Of a DNA stretch of 64,000 nucleotides, positions 34,739 to 39,012 are shown one piece after another. Location of the stretch: positions 1,779 through 65,778 of the forward strand of contig CAIQOV010000007.1 of NCBI GenBank assembly GCA_903873585.1, read 5' to 3'. Position 1 is the first letter of the stretch, and every line of letters begins with the position of its first letter. The position numbers and the translations under genes were made by a program. Below the pieces are notes generated by a model, which searched no databases, had not been told where the DNA came from, and was given only the letters and a program-made list of their open reading frames with translations. The stretch is from an uncultured Rhodobacterales bacterium (GTDB lineage: Bacteria > Pseudomonadota > Alphaproteobacteria > Rhodobacterales > Rhodobacteraceae).

Positions 34739-35767
34739 TTAGGCGCGCTGCCATGCCCAAGCGCCGTCAGGTGACAGGTGGCGGGTGATTTTGCCCTGTC
34801 GGTGCAAGCAGTTCAGGTGGGCCAAGGTTTCGGCCAAGGCCAGCCCAAAGTCATCCGGCCCAAGGCTGCGTCGGTATAGGGCGGAAAAGCAATCCACCGC
34901 GCGGGTGGGGGCAGACAGGTGATCTAACAGCCGCGCCAAAGCAGCGTCATGCGAGGCGATCTTTTGCATAAGGCGCAGGGGCAGGCCGGTGAAGGGCAGT
35001 TTATGGCCGGGTAAGATCAGCTGGTCGGGCTGCGCTATCGTTTGAAAGCTGCGGCAACTTGTCAGCCAATCGGTCAAAGGGTCAGCATCGGGTTCGGTGG
35101 CATAGACGCCGATGTTGGGGGTGATGGTGGCCAAGAACTGGTCGCCGCCCAGAACGAGAGCGTCATCAAGGCTCCACAATGTCGCATGGTCAGGCGCGTG
35201 GCCTTGGCCTAGGCGCACCTGCCAGCGGCGGCCAGCAGCTTGCAAAACTGTGCCCTCTTCAAGGCGAGAGAAGCCCAAGGGCAGGGGGTCGACGACATCA
35301 CAAAAGTTGAATGGCCGCTCGGCTGCCTTTTGTGCCAGCGCCTCGCCGCTTAACCCCGCGCGGGTTAGGAACAGGGTTGATTCGGGCGATCTGGTGGCTT
35401 GTTCATCCAGCGTTAACATGCGCGCGTACAGCCACGCCGTGCGGGTCATCAGCAACTCGGCCCCTTGGTCTTGGAACCAACCGGCAAGGCCCACATGGTC
35501 GGGGTGATGGTGGGTGACGATCACGCGCGAGACGGGTTTGCCGCGCAAAGGCCCCGCCAGCGCCGCCTGCCAGATGGCCTTGGTGCGCTTTGACGACAGG
35601 CCCGTATCGACCAGCGTCCAGCTTTGCCCATCGTCCAGCAAATAGGCGTTGACATGGTCAAGCGCACCTGGAAGCGGCAGGCGCAGCCATAAGACGCCTT
35701 GGGCGACTTCGACCGCTTGCCCCTCGGCCGGAGGATCGGGGAAAGGGTAGCGCAAGGCTTGGGTCAC
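34739..35767 (-). CDS. MBL-fold metallo-hydrolase
   Basis: LVDTG, THHHPDHVG (HxHxDH), GHAPDH, LPGH. Confidence 0.9.
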   Translation of the reverse strand: MTQALRYPFPDPPAEGQAVEVAQGVLWLRLPLPGALDHVNAYLLDDGQSWTLVDTGLSSKRTKAIWQAALAGPLRGKPVSRVIVTHHHPDHVGLAGWFQDQGAELLMTRTAWLYARMLTLDEQATRSPESTLFLTRAGLSGEALAQKAAERPFNFCDVVDPLPLGFSRLEEGTVLQAAGRRWQVRLGQGHAPDHATLWSLDDALVLGGDQFLATITPNIGVYATEPDADPLTDWLTSCRSFQTIAQPDQLILPGHKLPFTGLPLRLMQKIASHDAALARLLDHLSAPTRAVDCFSALYRRSLGPDDFGLALAETLAHLNCLHRQGKITRHLSPDGAWAWQRA

Positions 35768-37452
35768 GCGCGCAACATTTCCGCTGACAGGTCAGAAAGC
35801 CCCTGCGCGCCGTGCTGTGCTTCGGCGATCCATGCCGCATGGCGGGGCAGAAGGCGGGTGATGGCAAAGCGCGCAAGGGGCAGGCGTGTGGCATCAGCCT
35901 GTGCCGCTTTCAGGTGAAAACCCGCGCCCAGAACCTGCGCAAAGGCGCGTTGATAGGCCACGGCGGCCCCCGCGCGATCTATCGCGTCTTGCGCCAAAAG
36001 CGTGGCGGTCGCATCGCGCAGGGCCTGCACGGCAGCCAACACGGGCTGGCCAAGGTCGGGCGGTGACAGGGCGGCGGTCTGTGCGACCTCGTCCAGCAGG
36101 GCGAAGGCTGTAGCGCCGTTGTCCACCATCTTGCGGCCGACCAGATCCAGCGCCTGAATGCCGTTGGTGCCTTCGTAAATCTGCGTCACCCGCACATCGC
36201 GGGCGAACTGCGCCGCCCCGCTGTCTTCGATGAACCCCAACCCGCCATGCACCTGAATGCCCAACTGCGCCACATGGTGGCCGGTATCGGTGCCGTAAGC
36301 CTTGGCGATGGGGGTTAGAAAGGCCGCGCGGGCCTGCCATGCGCCGTCATCTGTGGCGCGGGCCATGTCGATGGCCACGGCACAAGCCAGCCCAATCGCG
36401 CGGGCGGCAAAGGTTTCAGCGCGCATCTCGGCCAGCATCCGGCGCACATCGGGGTGGCCGATCACGCCCGGCCCATCCAGCGCCGTGCGGCCCTGCACGC
36501 GTGCTTCGCCGTAGGTCAGGGCTTGTTGCAGGGCCGCTTCTGCCACGCAAACGCCCTGCATCCCCACGCCCAGCCTTGCGTTGTTCATCATGGTGAACAT
36601 CGCGGCCATGCCCTTGTGCGGTTCGCCCACAAGCCAGCCTGTAGCCCCTTCATAGGCCATCACGGCGGTGGGGGAGCCGTGCAGGCCCAGCTTATGTTCT
36701 AACCTGACCACCCGCAGCGCATTCCTCGCGCCAAGGTTGCCCGCCGCATCGGGCAGGAATTTGGGCACCATGAACAGGCTGATCCCCTTGGTGCCAGCCC
36801 CGCCATCAGGCAGGCGGGCCAGCACAAGGTGGCAGGTGTTTTGCGTGAAATCATTATCGGCCCACGAGATGTAAATCTTCTCGCCCGTGATGGCAAAGGT
36901 GTCGTCGCCCAAGGGTTCGGCCTTGGTGCGCAGCGCGCCCACATCCGATCCGGCCTGTGGTTCGGTCAGGTTCATCGTGCCGTTCCACTGGCCCGAGATC
37001 AGCTTGGGAATATACAGGGCCTGCATTTGGGGGCTGGCGTGATGCTCTAGCGCGTCAATTTGGCCTTGGGTCATCAGGGGGCACAGTTGCAGCGACAGAC
37101 AGGCCGATCCCATCATCTCGCCCACGCAGGTCGCCAAGGCCAAGGGCAAGCCCATGCCGCCGTGGTCGGGCGATGCACTGATGCCGATCCACCCGCCGTC
37201 GGCCACCGCGCGAAAGGCTGCGGCAAAGCCCGGAGAGGTGCGCACAACCCCGTCGACCAAGACCGCCGGATGCAAGTCGCCTGCGCGGTTGAGCGGCGCG
37301 AGGGTGGTTTGCGACAACCGCGCGGCTTCGGTCAGGATGGCGTCAACCGTGTCAGGCGTGGCGTGGCCAAAGCGGTCGGTGGCGGCGACTTGGTCAAAGC
37401 CAAGGGTCGCAAGCAACAGGCGGTAGTCTGACAGGGGGGCGGTGTAGGGCAT
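35764..37452 (-). CDS. Acyl-CoA dehydrogenase
   Basis: MPYTAP, MNLTEPQAGSDVG, GEKIYIS, EHKLGLHGSPT, QVHGGLGF, QIYEGTNGIQALDL. Confidence 0.93.
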   Translation of the reverse strand: MPYTAPLSDYRLLLATLGFDQVAATDRFGHATPDTVDAILTEAARLSQTTLAPLNRAGDLHPAVLVDGVVRTSPGFAAAFRAVADGGWIGISASPDHGGMGLPLALATCVGEMMGSACLSLQLCPLMTQGQIDALEHHASPQMQALYIPKLISGQWNGTMNLTEPQAGSDVGALRTKAEPLGDDTFAITGEKIYISWADNDFTQNTCHLVLARLPDGGAGTKGISLFMVPKFLPDAAGNLGARNALRVVRLEHKLGLHGSPTAVMAYEGATGWLVGEPHKGMAAMFTMMNNARLGVGMQGVCVAEAALQQALTYGEARVQGRTALDGPGVIGHPDVRRMLAEMRAETFAARAIGLACAVAIDMARATDDGAWQARAAFLTPIAKAYGTDTGHHVAQLGIQVHGGLGFIEDSGAAQFARDVRVTQIYEGTNGIQALDLVGRKMVDNGATAFALLDEVAQTAALSPPDLGQPVLAAVQALRDATATLLAQDAIDRAGAAVAYQRAFAQVLGAGFHLKAAQADATRLPLARFAITRLLPRHAAWIAEAQHGAQGLSDLSAEMLRA

Positions 37453-38186
37453 GGGCGCTCCTTCACAAGGGCGATGGCGCGGGATTGGACAGGGCAAGGA
37501 TACCGCGACCCAAGGCCGATGATCCAGCCCGAAAGACGAACAGCCCCAAATGGAGCCTGTGCAATCCTCGCCCCGATGCCGATGGCATCCAGCGCGCCGG
37601 AGAGCTTGTCACATTCCTGACCGAACCGCGCTATGGCCGTGGCGGCGCTCTGGACAAAGCCAAGGGCCACCATCAGCGCACGTTCGTCTGACAAGCGGGC
37701 GGCCTAGGGCTTGTGCGCTGCCTCGCAAGGCGATGGCGCGGGATAGAACAGGGCAAGGGCATTCCGACCCAAGCTCGATGACCCCGCCCGAAAGACGAAC
37801 GGCCCCAAATGGAACCCATGCAAATCTTCACCCCCATTGCTCATGGCGCGCTGCGCGCCGGAGAACTTGTCACATTCCGGACCGAACCGCGCTATGGCCG
37901 TGGCGGCGCTCTGGGCAAAGCCAAGGGCCACCATCAGCGCACGTTCGTCTGACAAGCGGGCGGCCTAGGGTTTGTGCGCTGCTTCACAAGGACGATGGCG
38001 CGCGATAGGACAGGGCAGGTGCATTCCGACCCAAGCCCGATGATCCAGCCCGAAAGGCGAACAGCCCCAAATGGAACCCATGCAAATCCTAGCCCCCGAT
38101 GCCGATGGCATCCAGCGCGCCGTGGCTTTGCTGCGCGGTGGCCTGCTTGTCGCCTTCCCGACCGAAACGGTTTACGGGCTTGGCGG
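37379..38186. repeat. Threefold tandem repeat (260, 261 and 280 bp units) of the divergent acd/sua5 junction; the inner gene halves are degenerate
   Basis: TGGCGG at 37380/37640/37901/38181, GTCTGACA at 37426/37686/37947, CCCCAAATGGA with ATG at 37550/37809/38071. Confidence 0.92.
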
Positions 38187-39012
38187 TGATGCCATGTCTG
38201 ATCTGGCGGTGGCGCGGATTTATGCGGCCAAGGGGCGGCCACGGTTCAACCCGCTGATCGCCCATGTGTCAGACATGGCGATGGCGCGGCGATTGGCCGT
38301 GTTTGACGACAAGGCCGAGGCGCTTGCGGCGCGGTTCTGGCCCGGCCCGCTGACCTTGGTGTTGCCGCTGCGTATGGATGCGGGCCTGTCGCCCTATGTC
38401 ACCGCAGAACTGCCCACTGTCGCAATCCGCCTGCCCGCCCATCCCGTAGCGCGTGCCCTGATTGCGGCGTTCGGCGGGCCATTGGCTGCCCCTTCGGCCA
38501 ACCCTTCGGGGCGGGTGTCACCGACAAGGGCGGATCATGTGGTGGACGGATTGCAGGGCCGCATTGCCGCGGTGATTGACGGGGGGGCCTGTGAAGTGGG
38601 GGTTGAATCGACCATCCTTGGGCTGTTTGCGCGCACCGAATTGCTGCGCCCCGGTGGTGTAACGGTGGAAGCGATCGAGGCTCTGACGGGGCCTTTGGCA
38701 ATCGGCGGCGATACAGCGCGCCCCAATGCGCCGGGCCAGTTGGCCAGCCACTACGCCCCGAATGCTCCGGTGCGGTTGAAGGCGGTGGACACGCGCGCAG
38801 GCGAAGTGCGCATCGGCTTTGGAGATGGGCCTTGTGATCTGAACCTGTCGCCCAAAGCCGACCTGATCGAAGCCGCCGCCAACCTGTTTCACCTGTTGCG
38901 CGCCGCCGATGCCTTGTCCCAAGGCCGCCCCATCGCCATCGCCCCCATCCCCGACACGGGCCTTGGCCGTGCCATCAACGACCGCTTGCGCCGCGCCGCC
39001 GCCCCTCGTTAA
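38071..39012 (+). CDS. sua5: L-threonylcarbamoyladenylate synthase, Sua5 type
   Basis: VAFPTETVYGLG, KGRPRFNPLIAH, FWPGPLT, AAPSANPSG, GVESTI, APGQLASHYAP. Confidence 0.96.
   Translation: MEPMQILAPDADGIQRAVALLRGGLLVAFPTETVYGLGGDAMSDLAVARIYAAKGRPRFNPLIAHVSDMAMARRLAVFDDKAEALAARFWPGPLTLVLPLRMDAGLSPYVTAELPTVAIRLPAHPVARALIAAFGGPLAAPSANPSGRVSPTRADHVVDGLQGRIAAVIDGGACEVGVESTILGLFARTELLRPGGVTVEAIEALTGPLAIGGDTARPNAPGQLASHYAPNAPVRLKAVDTRAGEVRIGFGDGPCDLNLSPKADLIEAAANLFHLLRAADALSQGRPIAIAPIPDTGLGRAINDRLRRAAAPR

Follow-up and report, generated by a model that had tools for sequence, protein, structure and literature searches.

A copy-number-variable tandem array between the divergent genes acd and sua5, probably a decaying duplication scar

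In the window (the whole stretch of 64,000 nucleotides that was analysed), the junction between two divergent genes, acd and sua5, is present as a tandem array. Does such an array multiply working promoter sites for the two genes, or is it the remnant of a duplication? We examined its structure, its unit number among relatives, its joints and the decay of its copies.

Structure of the array and unit number among relatives

Positions 37379-38186 comprise three head-to-tail units of 260, 261 and 281-287 nt, the length of the last depending on the chosen end point (Table 1). Each unit contains, in order, an acd 5' piece, a spacer of 96-97 bp and a sua5 5' piece, and intact gene pieces are found at the outer ends only. 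Tandem Repeats Finder (TRF) reported the array at 37379-38122 with a period of 261, 2.8 copies, 84% matches and a score of 1037. A MAFFT alignment of 37379-37638, 37639-37899 and 37900-38186 gave a mean column identity of 85%, and segments of the units were 73-97% alike in the window. No foreign DNA was detected between the copies by TRF or in the alignments; the units directly adjoin at the joints. No second occurrence of the repeat was found in its own genome, in which it is unique. These results confirm the threefold tandem structure proposed in the initial annotation. Its placement of the acd ATG in unit 1 only and of an open sua5 in unit 3 only was also correct, as was that of a sua5-type ATG (ATGGA) in all three units, at 37550, 37809 and 38071. 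The 18-bp deletion common to the sua5 copies of units 1 and 2 was found as described; its position between GCGCG-type repeats is alignment-ambiguous. Of the sizes given there, those of the first two units stand, but the third unit exceeds the 280 bp assigned to it; likewise, all three units keep the spacer of ~97 bp, but that of unit 2 is 96 nt.

The intact acd is full-length and colinear with its orthologs, with a dN/dS of ~0.1 relative to three relatives (L034, L066 and L070). The database entry for Sua5, reached via cluster members, is a 310-aa product called from Met4.

Table 1. Features of the acd/sua5 junction, in window coordinates.
Feature	Position	Strand	Description
Intact acd (acyl-CoA dehydrogenase)	35764-37452	-	ORF of 562 aa, ATG at 37452; Acyl-CoA_dh_N/M/1/C domains (Pfam)
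Unit 1	37379-37638		260 bp; real acd 5' 74 nt, spacer s1, sua5 pseudo-piece
Microhomology arm in acd	37380-37385		TGGCGG; extended arm TGGCGGCGAC
Spacer s1	37453-37549		adjoins real acd; acd RBS GAAGGAG (minus strand) and putative sua5-promoter copy with mutated -10
sua5 pseudo-piece 1	37550-37638	+	ATG kept; 2-nt deletion (frameshift); 18-nt deletion
Joint 1	37632-37647		TATGGCC/GTGGCGGCG; sua5 piece fused to acd piece at TGGCGG arm
Unit 2	37639-37899		261 bp; acd pseudo-piece, spacer s2, sua5 pseudo-piece; without functional gene end
acd pseudo-piece 2	37639-37712	-	ATG to AAG, TAC to TAG stop, RBS lost
83-aa ORF	37707-37955	-	candidate chimeric product
Spacer s2	37713-37808		degraded copy of putative sua5 promoter: CTCGCA 37722-37727, N16, TAGAAC 37744-37749
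sua5 pseudo-piece 2	37809-37899	+	ATG kept; 18-nt deletion; opens the 47-aa ORF
47-aa ORF	37809-37952	+	candidate chimeric product
Joint 2	37893-37908		TATGGCC/GTGGCGGCG
Unit 3	37900-38186		acd pseudo-piece 37900-37973, spacer s3, real sua5 5' end to TGGCGG arm
Spacer s3	37974-38070	+	sole intact sua5 footprint: TTCACA 37983-37988, N17, TAGGAC 38006-38011
Intact sua5 (threonylcarbamoyl-AMP synthase)	38071-39012	+	313 aa; Sua5_yciO_yrdC and Sua5_C domains
Microhomology arm in sua5	38181-38186		TGGCGG; extended arm TGGCGGTGAT

The separate 158-kb ENA scaffold L063 was 100% identical to the window over 36900-38700 and had three units, and an 83-aa ORF lying wholly inside the array was found on five NCBI/ENA contigs. 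Independent assemblies therefore carry the identical array, which supports the earlier view that simple misassembly is unlikely. Two conspecific loci, L066 and L070, in which acd and sua5 had 96-98% nucleotide identity (dS 0.05-0.11), had four units each, of 279/260/261/287 nt and 278/261/257/287 nt, respectively; unit 1 of both keeps an undeleted sua5 piece. A single unit was found in L034, whose acd is 97% identical, and in each of the nearest "DGEL"-type relatives. A survey of the genus gave a match in 29 of 33 genomes, among them G000 (the three-unit genome); all matched genomes other than G000 had a single-copy junction with properly spaced arms. ENA contigs with 91-94% Sua5 identity were also single-copy. 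Independent junction duplications were not found in other genus genomes (TRF was empty on all fetched junction loci), and no array-bearing contig with fewer than three units was seen. Unit number is thus polymorphic within the species (three in G000 and L063, four in L066 and L070), and the copy-number variation anticipated on comparison with relatives was observed, with 1, 3 and 4 units.

Joints of the units and proposed order of events

TGGCGG occurs at 37380, 37640, 37901 and 38181, and each joint has exactly one hybrid arm; the window joints read TATGGCC/GTGGCGGCGCTCTGG. The oldest joint survives in the four-unit L066 and L070, in which sua5 ...CTTGGCGGTGAT is followed by TTGCGCAAAGCC... 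of acd. In single-unit relatives (L034, G008 and others), the acd arm is TGGCGGCGAC and the sua5 arm, ~279 bp away, is TGGCGGTGAT or TGGCGGCGAT. The oldest joint of the four-unit forms thus points to TGGCGGYGAY as the microhomology at which a 279-bp segment was duplicated. The initial annotation had proposed that the units join at a TGGCGG found in both genes, and that a microhomology-mediated duplication was followed by re-amplification; the two arms bear out the former proposal, and the oldest joint kept in the four-unit relatives agrees with the latter. A joint 35-mer had no match in JGI metagenome contigs, and a 26-mer had none in GTDB genome contigs; a 21-mer matched 10 loci, all of them chance matches of 21-23 nt.

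Over its left ~210 nt, window unit 1 is almost the same as unit 1 of the four-unit relatives, down to a private 2-nt deletion; its right 40 nt match unit 2 of these relatives. Window unit 1 is therefore a mosaic of the relatives' units 1 and 2, indicating a contraction from four units to three. Joint cores within the window were 96.5% alike, in comparison with 85% for the remainder of unit 2 and its twin (Fisher p = 0.003), a higher likeness that we attribute to probable gene conversion.

We infer the following order of events. The array would have begun with the tandem duplication of a 279-bp segment in an ancestor of this species-level lineage, which is that of a Paracoccaceae bacterium close to Cypionkella. 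The segment extended from acd codon 25, through the 97-bp divergent spacer, to approximately codon 38 of sua5, and its ends would have lain at a 10-nt imperfect microhomology, TGGCGGCGAC on the acd side and TGGCGGTGAT on the sua5 side. Because acd and sua5 are divergent, the duplication would have left each gene one intact copy with its native upstream DNA; it would therefore have had no cost and been tolerated. The array may then have grown via unequal crossing-over or slippage. Loss of 18 nt from one inner joint piece, and multiplication of that unit, would have given four units. The window lineage would then have lost one unit, through crossing-over of unit 1 with unit 2, leaving three; short gene conversions probably turned the units into mosaics. 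What is kept today would be limited to the elements adjoining a real gene, namely RBS and start of acd in unit 1 and, in the last unit, promoter and start of sua5; the remaining copies would presumably drift as non-functional DNA. On this evidence, the locus is very probably a home-grown, copy-number-variable tandem array that represents a decaying duplication scar.

Near-identical direct repeats of 260-280 bp collapse in E. coli far faster than point mutations accumulate. The survival of the array to the point of stabilising divergence suggests either early selection for its retention or an unusually low rate of collapse. Loss of RecA or MutS was considered as a source of repeat tolerance and rejected, both genes being present. 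The same genome contains other lineage-specific arrays of ~3 copies, located at gene 3' ends without promoter involvement.

Decay of the extra copies and alternative readings

In the pseudo gene pieces, the start codon, RBS and frame have been lost. Units 2 and 3 have CTT or TTT in place of the acd start CAT and a TAG stop in place of TAC; the RBS GAAGGAG has become GAGGCAG in unit 2 and GAAGCAG in unit 3. Among polarised acd-piece sites, 15 of 66 had changed on the pseudo lineage vs. 2 on the real lineage. Changes in pseudo-pieces were distributed evenly over codon positions (8/6/5 for acd pseudo-piece 2 vs. real; 7/5/9 and 9/6/9 in the other comparisons); differences between orthologs were biased to the third position (e.g., 4/3/15). 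Identity of acd pieces between units was as low as 66-74%, and pseudo pieces differed by 9-17% between conspecific strains, at least as much as the flanking dS. Spacer copies were 83-88% alike, vs. 73-77% for pseudo and real coding pieces, and there were seven private derived changes in s2 vs. one in s3. Judged from these sequence comparisons, the decay of the pseudo gene pieces is of the pseudogene type. Import of diverged donor copies (homology-facilitated illegitimate recombination) was rejected as their source: the pseudo-vs-real differences are distributed evenly among codon positions, and no relative has a gene to which the pseudo pieces are nearer.

A phylogenetic footprint, TT[CG][AG]CA-N17-TA...., was present with the same spacing in 16 of 19 distinct genus junctions, and its conservation identifies it as the putative sua5 promoter. 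In s3 it stands 59 nt 5' of the ATG. The last unit of L066 and of L070 also has it intact, so that in the window and in both of these relatives only the sua5-proximal copy is intact. All other copies are altered at -35 T1, at -10 A2 or in the 17-nt spacing, each of which is invariant in the 16 junctions. Unit 1 has TTGGAC; in the inner units, CTCGCA or CTCACA is combined with N16 or N17, and in most of them with TTGGTG. The s1 copy reads TTCACA (37462-37467), N17, TTGGAC (37485-37490); the A-to-T change at -10 position 2 of unit 1 is common to all three array-bearing lineages. A scan for the sigma-70 consensus gave no promoter match, and terminator-like matches were at chance level. No operator-like palindrome was found. 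No minus-strand motif was conserved across the genus junctions, and the acd promoter was not located.

If the array were a working promoter array, extra spacers would fire or bind a regulator, and unit number would adaptively tune sua5 and/or acd. Unit numbers of 1, 3 and 4 among close relatives and the greater likeness of spacers than of coding pieces are consistent with this reading, and long persistence of a repeat is easier to explain under selection. However, the footprint copies other than the sua5-proximal one are altered at invariant features, private changes are concentrated in the middle spacer rather than the functional one, the like arrays of this genome are at gene 3' ends, and neither an operator-like palindrome nor a sigma-70 consensus match was found. 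We consider a working promoter array unlikely from the sequences. The initial proposal that multiplied promoter/operator sites serve as an expression rheostat or regulator sink is accordingly not upheld, since the footprint is intact only beside the real sua5 and the pseudo pieces are decaying. Less probable still is a selected decoupling, in which overlapping, mutually exclusive divergent promoters each received a private copy by the duplication and collapse was disfavoured. The acd RBS region and the putative sua5 -35 hexamer overlap; the unit 1 spacer is without the sua5 -10 in three lineages, yet is 99-100% conserved between them; and the last unit retains the sua5 promoter without the acd RBS and start. 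Neutral decay, however, likewise predicts loss of unused elements, an acd promoter or genus-wide minus-strand motif was not detected, and single-unit relatives have intact acd and sua5 on one shared spacer. If such decoupling is true, the spacer of unit 1 would by now serve acd alone and that of the last unit sua5 alone, and a return to one unit would couple the genes again, to the cell's disadvantage. It would be a natural case in which tandem duplication subfunctionalised a bidirectional promoter, and would explain how 260-280-bp repeats outlasted the unstable near-identical phase.

It is very improbable that the inner units encode a new product, be it a small chimeric protein or a structured joint-core RNA. 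The likeness of the window joint cores would fit such a product, and the ORFs are open across the joints and are called by gene callers; however, the joints are 10-15% diverged in L066 and L070. In the alignments, most differences between the two joint cores are nonsynonymous, whichever frame is read; the unit 1 ORF is frameshifted, and ORF length is 83 vs. 76 aa between strains. Selection on a small ORF was rejected on the first two of these points. Fold energies matched those of shuffles (z between -0.5 and +1.1), the observed joint folds less well than its reconstructed ancestor, and Rfam gave a chance match alone (E = 0.55). We also rejected selection on the joint core for a hairpin, terminator or sRNA, with fold z ~0 and an inverted-repeat score and MFE at best equal to those of the ancestral joint. 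The probability that the assembler stacked strain variants or repeat k-mers is negligible. The genome is a 55-contig draft and a Logan contig breaks within unit 3, but the joints lie at 6-10-nt microhomology, far below assembly k-mers, and the stops, frameshifts and 18-nt deletion of the inner copies are not expected in alleles of an essential gene. The array recurs identically in the separate scaffold and on the five contigs, and several samples yielded four-unit arrays, on contigs named in two styles, k141_... and ...-scaffold_....

As a decaying duplication scar, the locus would provide a clean, datable natural case of the birth and ageing of a tandem repeat in a bacterial chromosome. Its stages are readable in close relatives: single copy, original joint, intermediate deletion, four-unit expansion and three-unit contraction. 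It would also show why duplications ending in two divergent genes are tolerated: the genes and their upstream DNA stay whole. In annotation, the inner ATGs and the ORFs of 47, 76 and 83 aa in the array are best treated as pseudo-fragments. The array indicates nothing special about t6A biology or acd regulation. Its wider interest lies in how long direct repeats, of which this genome has several, avoided collapsing until they had diverged.

Comparison with known systems

Bacterial VNTR loci, which serve strain typing (e.g., MIRU-VNTR), usually consist of nearly identical units of 10-100 bp. Like a VNTR or minisatellite, the array described here is largely intergenic and its unit number varies between strains of one species; unlike these, its units are 257-287 bp, visibly derived from two flanking genes and strongly diverged. 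The idea of a rheostat is modelled on promoter tandem repeats with an expression-raising effect, such as TR34/TR46, which lie upstream of cyp51A in Aspergillus fumigatus; in such repeats the duplicated sites are intact and active. Promoter DNA is tandemly duplicated upstream of a gene in both cases; here, however, mutations have altered conserved positions of the duplicated promoter elements, and in the window, L066 and L070 the repeats do not each keep the putative active elements.

A junction-spanning evolutionary unit was described by Tsuru and Kobayashi (2008, PMC2568036) for the lpl tandem paralog cluster of Staphylococcus aureus. As outlined there, the lpl repeat unit does not coincide with a gene; like ours, it starts within one ORF, crosses the intergenic region and extends into the following ORF. 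In that account the lpl units are co-directional and rebuild whole functional paralogs, whereas the present array yields only dead 5' fragments of two unrelated divergent genes.

Microhomology-mediated tandem duplication (MTD) expanding to tandem repeats has been documented (Dan et al. 2021, PMC8639346), and MTD expansion was also reported by Wei et al. (2026, bioRxiv 10.64898/2026.02.28.708716). The array shares with MTD the head-to-tail duplication of a single-copy segment between short direct microhomologies, with one hybrid arm per joint, as well as expansion to 3-4 copies and a copy number that is variable among close relatives. It differs in that the 279-bp unit is long and covers two gene starts and a divergent promoter. 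De novo MTDs are near-identical and rapidly reverting; in contrast, the present array is common to lineages with dS of 0.05-0.11, and its copies are old and 3-30% diverged.

Structure and authenticity of the array

Tandem Repeats Finder (TRF) detected a direct repeat of period 261 and 2.8 copies (84% matches, score 1037), and MAFFT alignment of 37379-37638, 37639-37899 and 37900-38186 gave a mean column identity of 85%. These results bear out the initial annotation, which had described a three-unit direct tandem repeat at 37379-38186 between the divergently transcribed genes acd and sua5; the gene identities that it gave agree with the domains found (see table). Each unit combines the acd 5′ end (74 nt), a spacer of 96-97 nt (s1, s2 and s3 in units 1, 2 and 3) and the sua5 5′ end (~90 nt). 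TGGCGG occurs at 37380, 37640, 37901 and 38181, and both internal joints read TATGGCC followed by GTGGCGGCG. The acd start is kept only in unit 1. In units 2 and 3, the acd ATG is replaced by AAG/AAA, a TAG stop stands in place of the third codon, and the RBS has changed from GAAGGAG to GAGGCAG (unit 2) or GAAGCAG (unit 3). The sua5 piece of unit 1 has a 2-nt deletion, and an 18-nt deletion is common to units 1 and 2. The array was found once in its own genome (G000; 3.2 Mb, 55 contigs). At 37845-37859, unit 2 carries GGCGCGCTGCGCGCC, a 15-nt perfect palindrome, where units 1 and 3 have GGCATCCAGCGCGCC and relatives have GGCGTGCAACGCGC; template switching at a quasi-palindrome would be expected to leave such a cluster of changes, one that perfects an inverted repeat.

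The exact 313-aa Sua5 had no database record. A 310-aa entry, P0131, represents the window's Sua5 called from Met4 (in the cluster of its 94% relative) and was found on several contigs. One of these, an independent 158-kb ENA scaffold (L063), was 100% identical to window 36900-38700, array included, and an 83-aa ORF lying wholly within units 2-3 was present on 5 NCBI/ENA contigs. Several other samples yielded related four-unit arrays, on contigs named in two styles. An assembly artefact would also have to account for joints on microhomology of just 6-10 nt and for inner copies with stops, frameshifts and a deletion, and is extremely improbable. The earlier view that simple misassembly is unlikely therefore holds, since independent assemblies carry the array.

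Features of the acd/sua5 junction and other arrays in G000
Feature	Location	Strand	Details
Acyl-CoA dehydrogenase (acd)	35764-37452	minus	ACAD N, M, 1 and C domains
Sua5/TsaC-type threonylcarbamoyl-AMP synthase (sua5)	38071-39012	plus	Sua5_yciO_yrdC + Sua5_C
Putative promoter copy, s1 (unit 1)	37462-37490	plus	-35 TTCACA, spacing 17, -10 TTGGAC
Putative promoter copy, s2 (unit 2)	37722-37749	plus	-35 CTCGCA, spacing 16, -10 TAGAAC
Putative sua5 promoter copy, s3 (adjoins real sua5)	37983-38011	plus	-35 TTCACA, spacing 17, -10 TAGGAC
Putative promoter copy, L066/L070 unit 1		plus	-35 TTCACA, spacing 17, -10 TTGGAC
Putative promoter copies, L066/L070 inner units		plus	-35 CTCGCA or CTCACA, spacing 16 or 17, -10 TTGGTG in 3/4
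Putative promoter copy, L066/L070 last unit		plus	-35 TTCACA, spacing 17, -10 TAGGAC; canonical
248-nt x 3.2 array, 90% matches	G000:C37:158879-159678 (L038 1880-2679), outside window		Pseudopilin 3′ end/approach to next pseudopilin gene
142-nt ~3-copy array, 94%	G000:C25:12885-13303 (L040 1586-2004)		FAD-linked oxidase 3′ end + REP-like palindromes (REP pair)
175-nt ~3-copy array, 93%	G000:C26:182445-182977 (L039 1646-2178)		MR/MLE enolase-like 3′ end + REP-like palindromes

Unit number in relatives and history of the array

Synteny of the divergent acd/sua5 pair extends across the genus. Of 33 genus genomes searched at the DNA level, 29 gave a match, G000 among them; all 28 others had a single junction, and TRF found no repeat in any fetched junction locus. 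One 96-97-nt spacer was present in ENA contigs L034-L037 (Sua5 91-94% identical) and in "DGEL"-type contigs L073-L075. In L065-L072, the contigs bearing Sua5 entries P0132 and P0133, the acd-sua5 gap was 893-897 nt, equal to four units (279/260/261/287 nt and 278/261/257/287 nt). With 96-98% identity to the window in both acd and sua5 (dS 0.05-0.11), these contigs are conspecific with it or nearly so. The one-unit contig L034 had an acd 97% identical to that of the window (dS 0.09) and a sua5 only 90.5% identical (dS 0.31). Its acd identity of 96-100% over most of the gene dropped within about 350 nt of the start, a pattern that points to a mosaic made by homologous recombination, with its breakpoint close to the junction. 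Unit number among very close relatives is 1, 3 or 4. Just downstream of sua5, L065-L069 have a 244-nt x 1.9 repeat containing a Sua5_C fragment ORF; beyond the repeat lies an ORF with an Arm-DNA-bind_3 (integrase N-terminal) domain, and L065 has its hydantoinase gene inverted. The arrangement resembles a scar left by an integrative element that targeted the sua5 3′ end, and is absent from the window.

Microhomology-mediated duplication followed by re-amplification had been proposed for the array; the oldest joint and its arms in relatives supported and extended this proposal. In unit 1 of the four-unit forms, the sua5 piece is undeleted and diverged (81% identical to the real gene), and the first joint runs from ...CTACGGCCTTGGCGGTGAT of sua5 to TTGCGCAAAGCC... 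of acd. In single-copy relatives, about 279 bp separates the acd arm, TGGCGGCGAC, from the sua5 arm, TGGCGGTGAT or TGGCGGCGAT. The old joint and arms are the signature of microhomology-mediated tandem duplication. The array would have grown to three units before the 18-nt deletion arose in one joint piece and the deleted unit multiplied, because all inner joints carry this deletion. Window unit 1 equals L070 unit 1 up to about column 210, private 2-nt deletion included, and beyond that point matches L066 unit 2 (39/40 nt). Because window unit 1 follows unit 1 and then unit 2 of the relatives, the three-unit form would be a four-unit form less one unit, via unequal crossover. Short tracts shared in conflict with the unit tree (e.g. 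29 nt identical in window units 1 and 3) point to gene conversion.

Pseudo acd pieces (non-functional 5′ copies in the array) differed from the real gene at 26-34% of sites, and polarised acd changes were 15/66 on the pseudo lineage versus 2 on the real lineage. The first duplication is evidently old, because this divergence exceeds synonymous divergence between array-bearing strains several-fold. The two joint cores of the window differed at 4/120 sites, versus 18/120 for the rest of unit 2 and its twin (Fisher p = 0.003); joints were 10-15% apart in L066/L070. The similarity of the window joint cores would be explained most simply by conversion that took place recently in this lineage.

Functional state of the copies

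Differences between pseudo and real sequences fell evenly on the three codon positions (acd 8/6/5; sua5 7/5/9 and 9/6/9); ortholog comparisons were biased to the third position, e.g. 4/3/15. The pseudo-pieces decay as non-coding DNA does, and the even spread excludes the import of a functional copy that had diverged beforehand. Alignment of 19 distinct genus junctions revealed a plus-strand motif, TT[CG][AG]CA-N17-TA...., in 16 of them, 52-63 nt before the sua5 ATG, which we infer to be the putative sua5 promoter. A sigma-70 consensus scan gave no match. All copies but the sua5-proximal one were altered at -35 T1, -10 A2 or the 17-nt spacing, which are invariant in the 16 junctions. The middle spacer of the window had 7 private derived changes versus 1 in the functional spacer, and pseudo and inner segments were 9-17% apart between conspecific strains, at or above flanking dS. 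Because of these alterations and this divergence, the extra putative promoter copies are evidently not maintained, and this is the main evidence against the suggested expression rheostat or regulator sink, a functional reading that is not supported.

The joint core forms a long imperfect hairpin; however, its energy was that of shuffles (z -0.5 to +1.1) and the reconstructed ancestral joint folds better than the observed one, so a selected fold was rejected. An Rfam search gave no match. Chimeric ORFs were rejected as coding, since their differences were mostly nonsynonymous and their lengths vary between strains. Joint-specific patterns had no further copies, and 21-mer matches in JGI contigs were due to chance.

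In L034-L037, gene callers have chosen an in-frame ATG that precedes the sua5 start by 30 nt, giving 323-aa products. A 1-nt insertion in window 38041-38071 shifts this ATG out of frame, and it is not kept across the genus. Both observations support 38071 as the true sua5 start; the 323-aa calls are probably too long.

Persistence and comparison with known systems

In laboratory work, point mutations build up orders of magnitude more slowly than identical direct repeats of such length are lost. That the repeats survived until they were diverged and stable therefore argues for selection early on or for a low rate of collapse. The genome has both RecA and MutS. G000 has three other ~3-copy arrays at gene boundaries (see table). 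The C37 array lies in a type II secretion cluster (T2SSG, N_methyl); its flanks are adjacent in G047, G048, G012 and G024, leaving about 726 nt extra in G000. The C25 locus is about 286 nt shorter in the closest genome, G008, which thus has a single unit there. Both arrays compared with relatives were thus absent or single-copy there (2/2). Because promoters are not involved in the C37, C25 and C26 arrays, the comparison favours a lineage-wide tolerance of, or propensity for, short junction duplications over selection specific to sua5/acd.

Microhomology-mediated tandem duplication and expansion into tandem repeats have been described (PMC8639346; bioRxiv 10.64898/2026.02.28.708716), and such an origin, with later expansion, fits the array. 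Three of its features were tested and found here: copies in direct orientation, a single hybrid arm at each joint and, where only one copy exists, the two arms. Unlike the described duplications, which are rapidly reversible and near-identical, the array is old and diverged. Its unit number varies within the species, as in a VNTR, but typical VNTR units are far shorter and less diverged. The locus is an unusually well-documented case of a known class of duplication.
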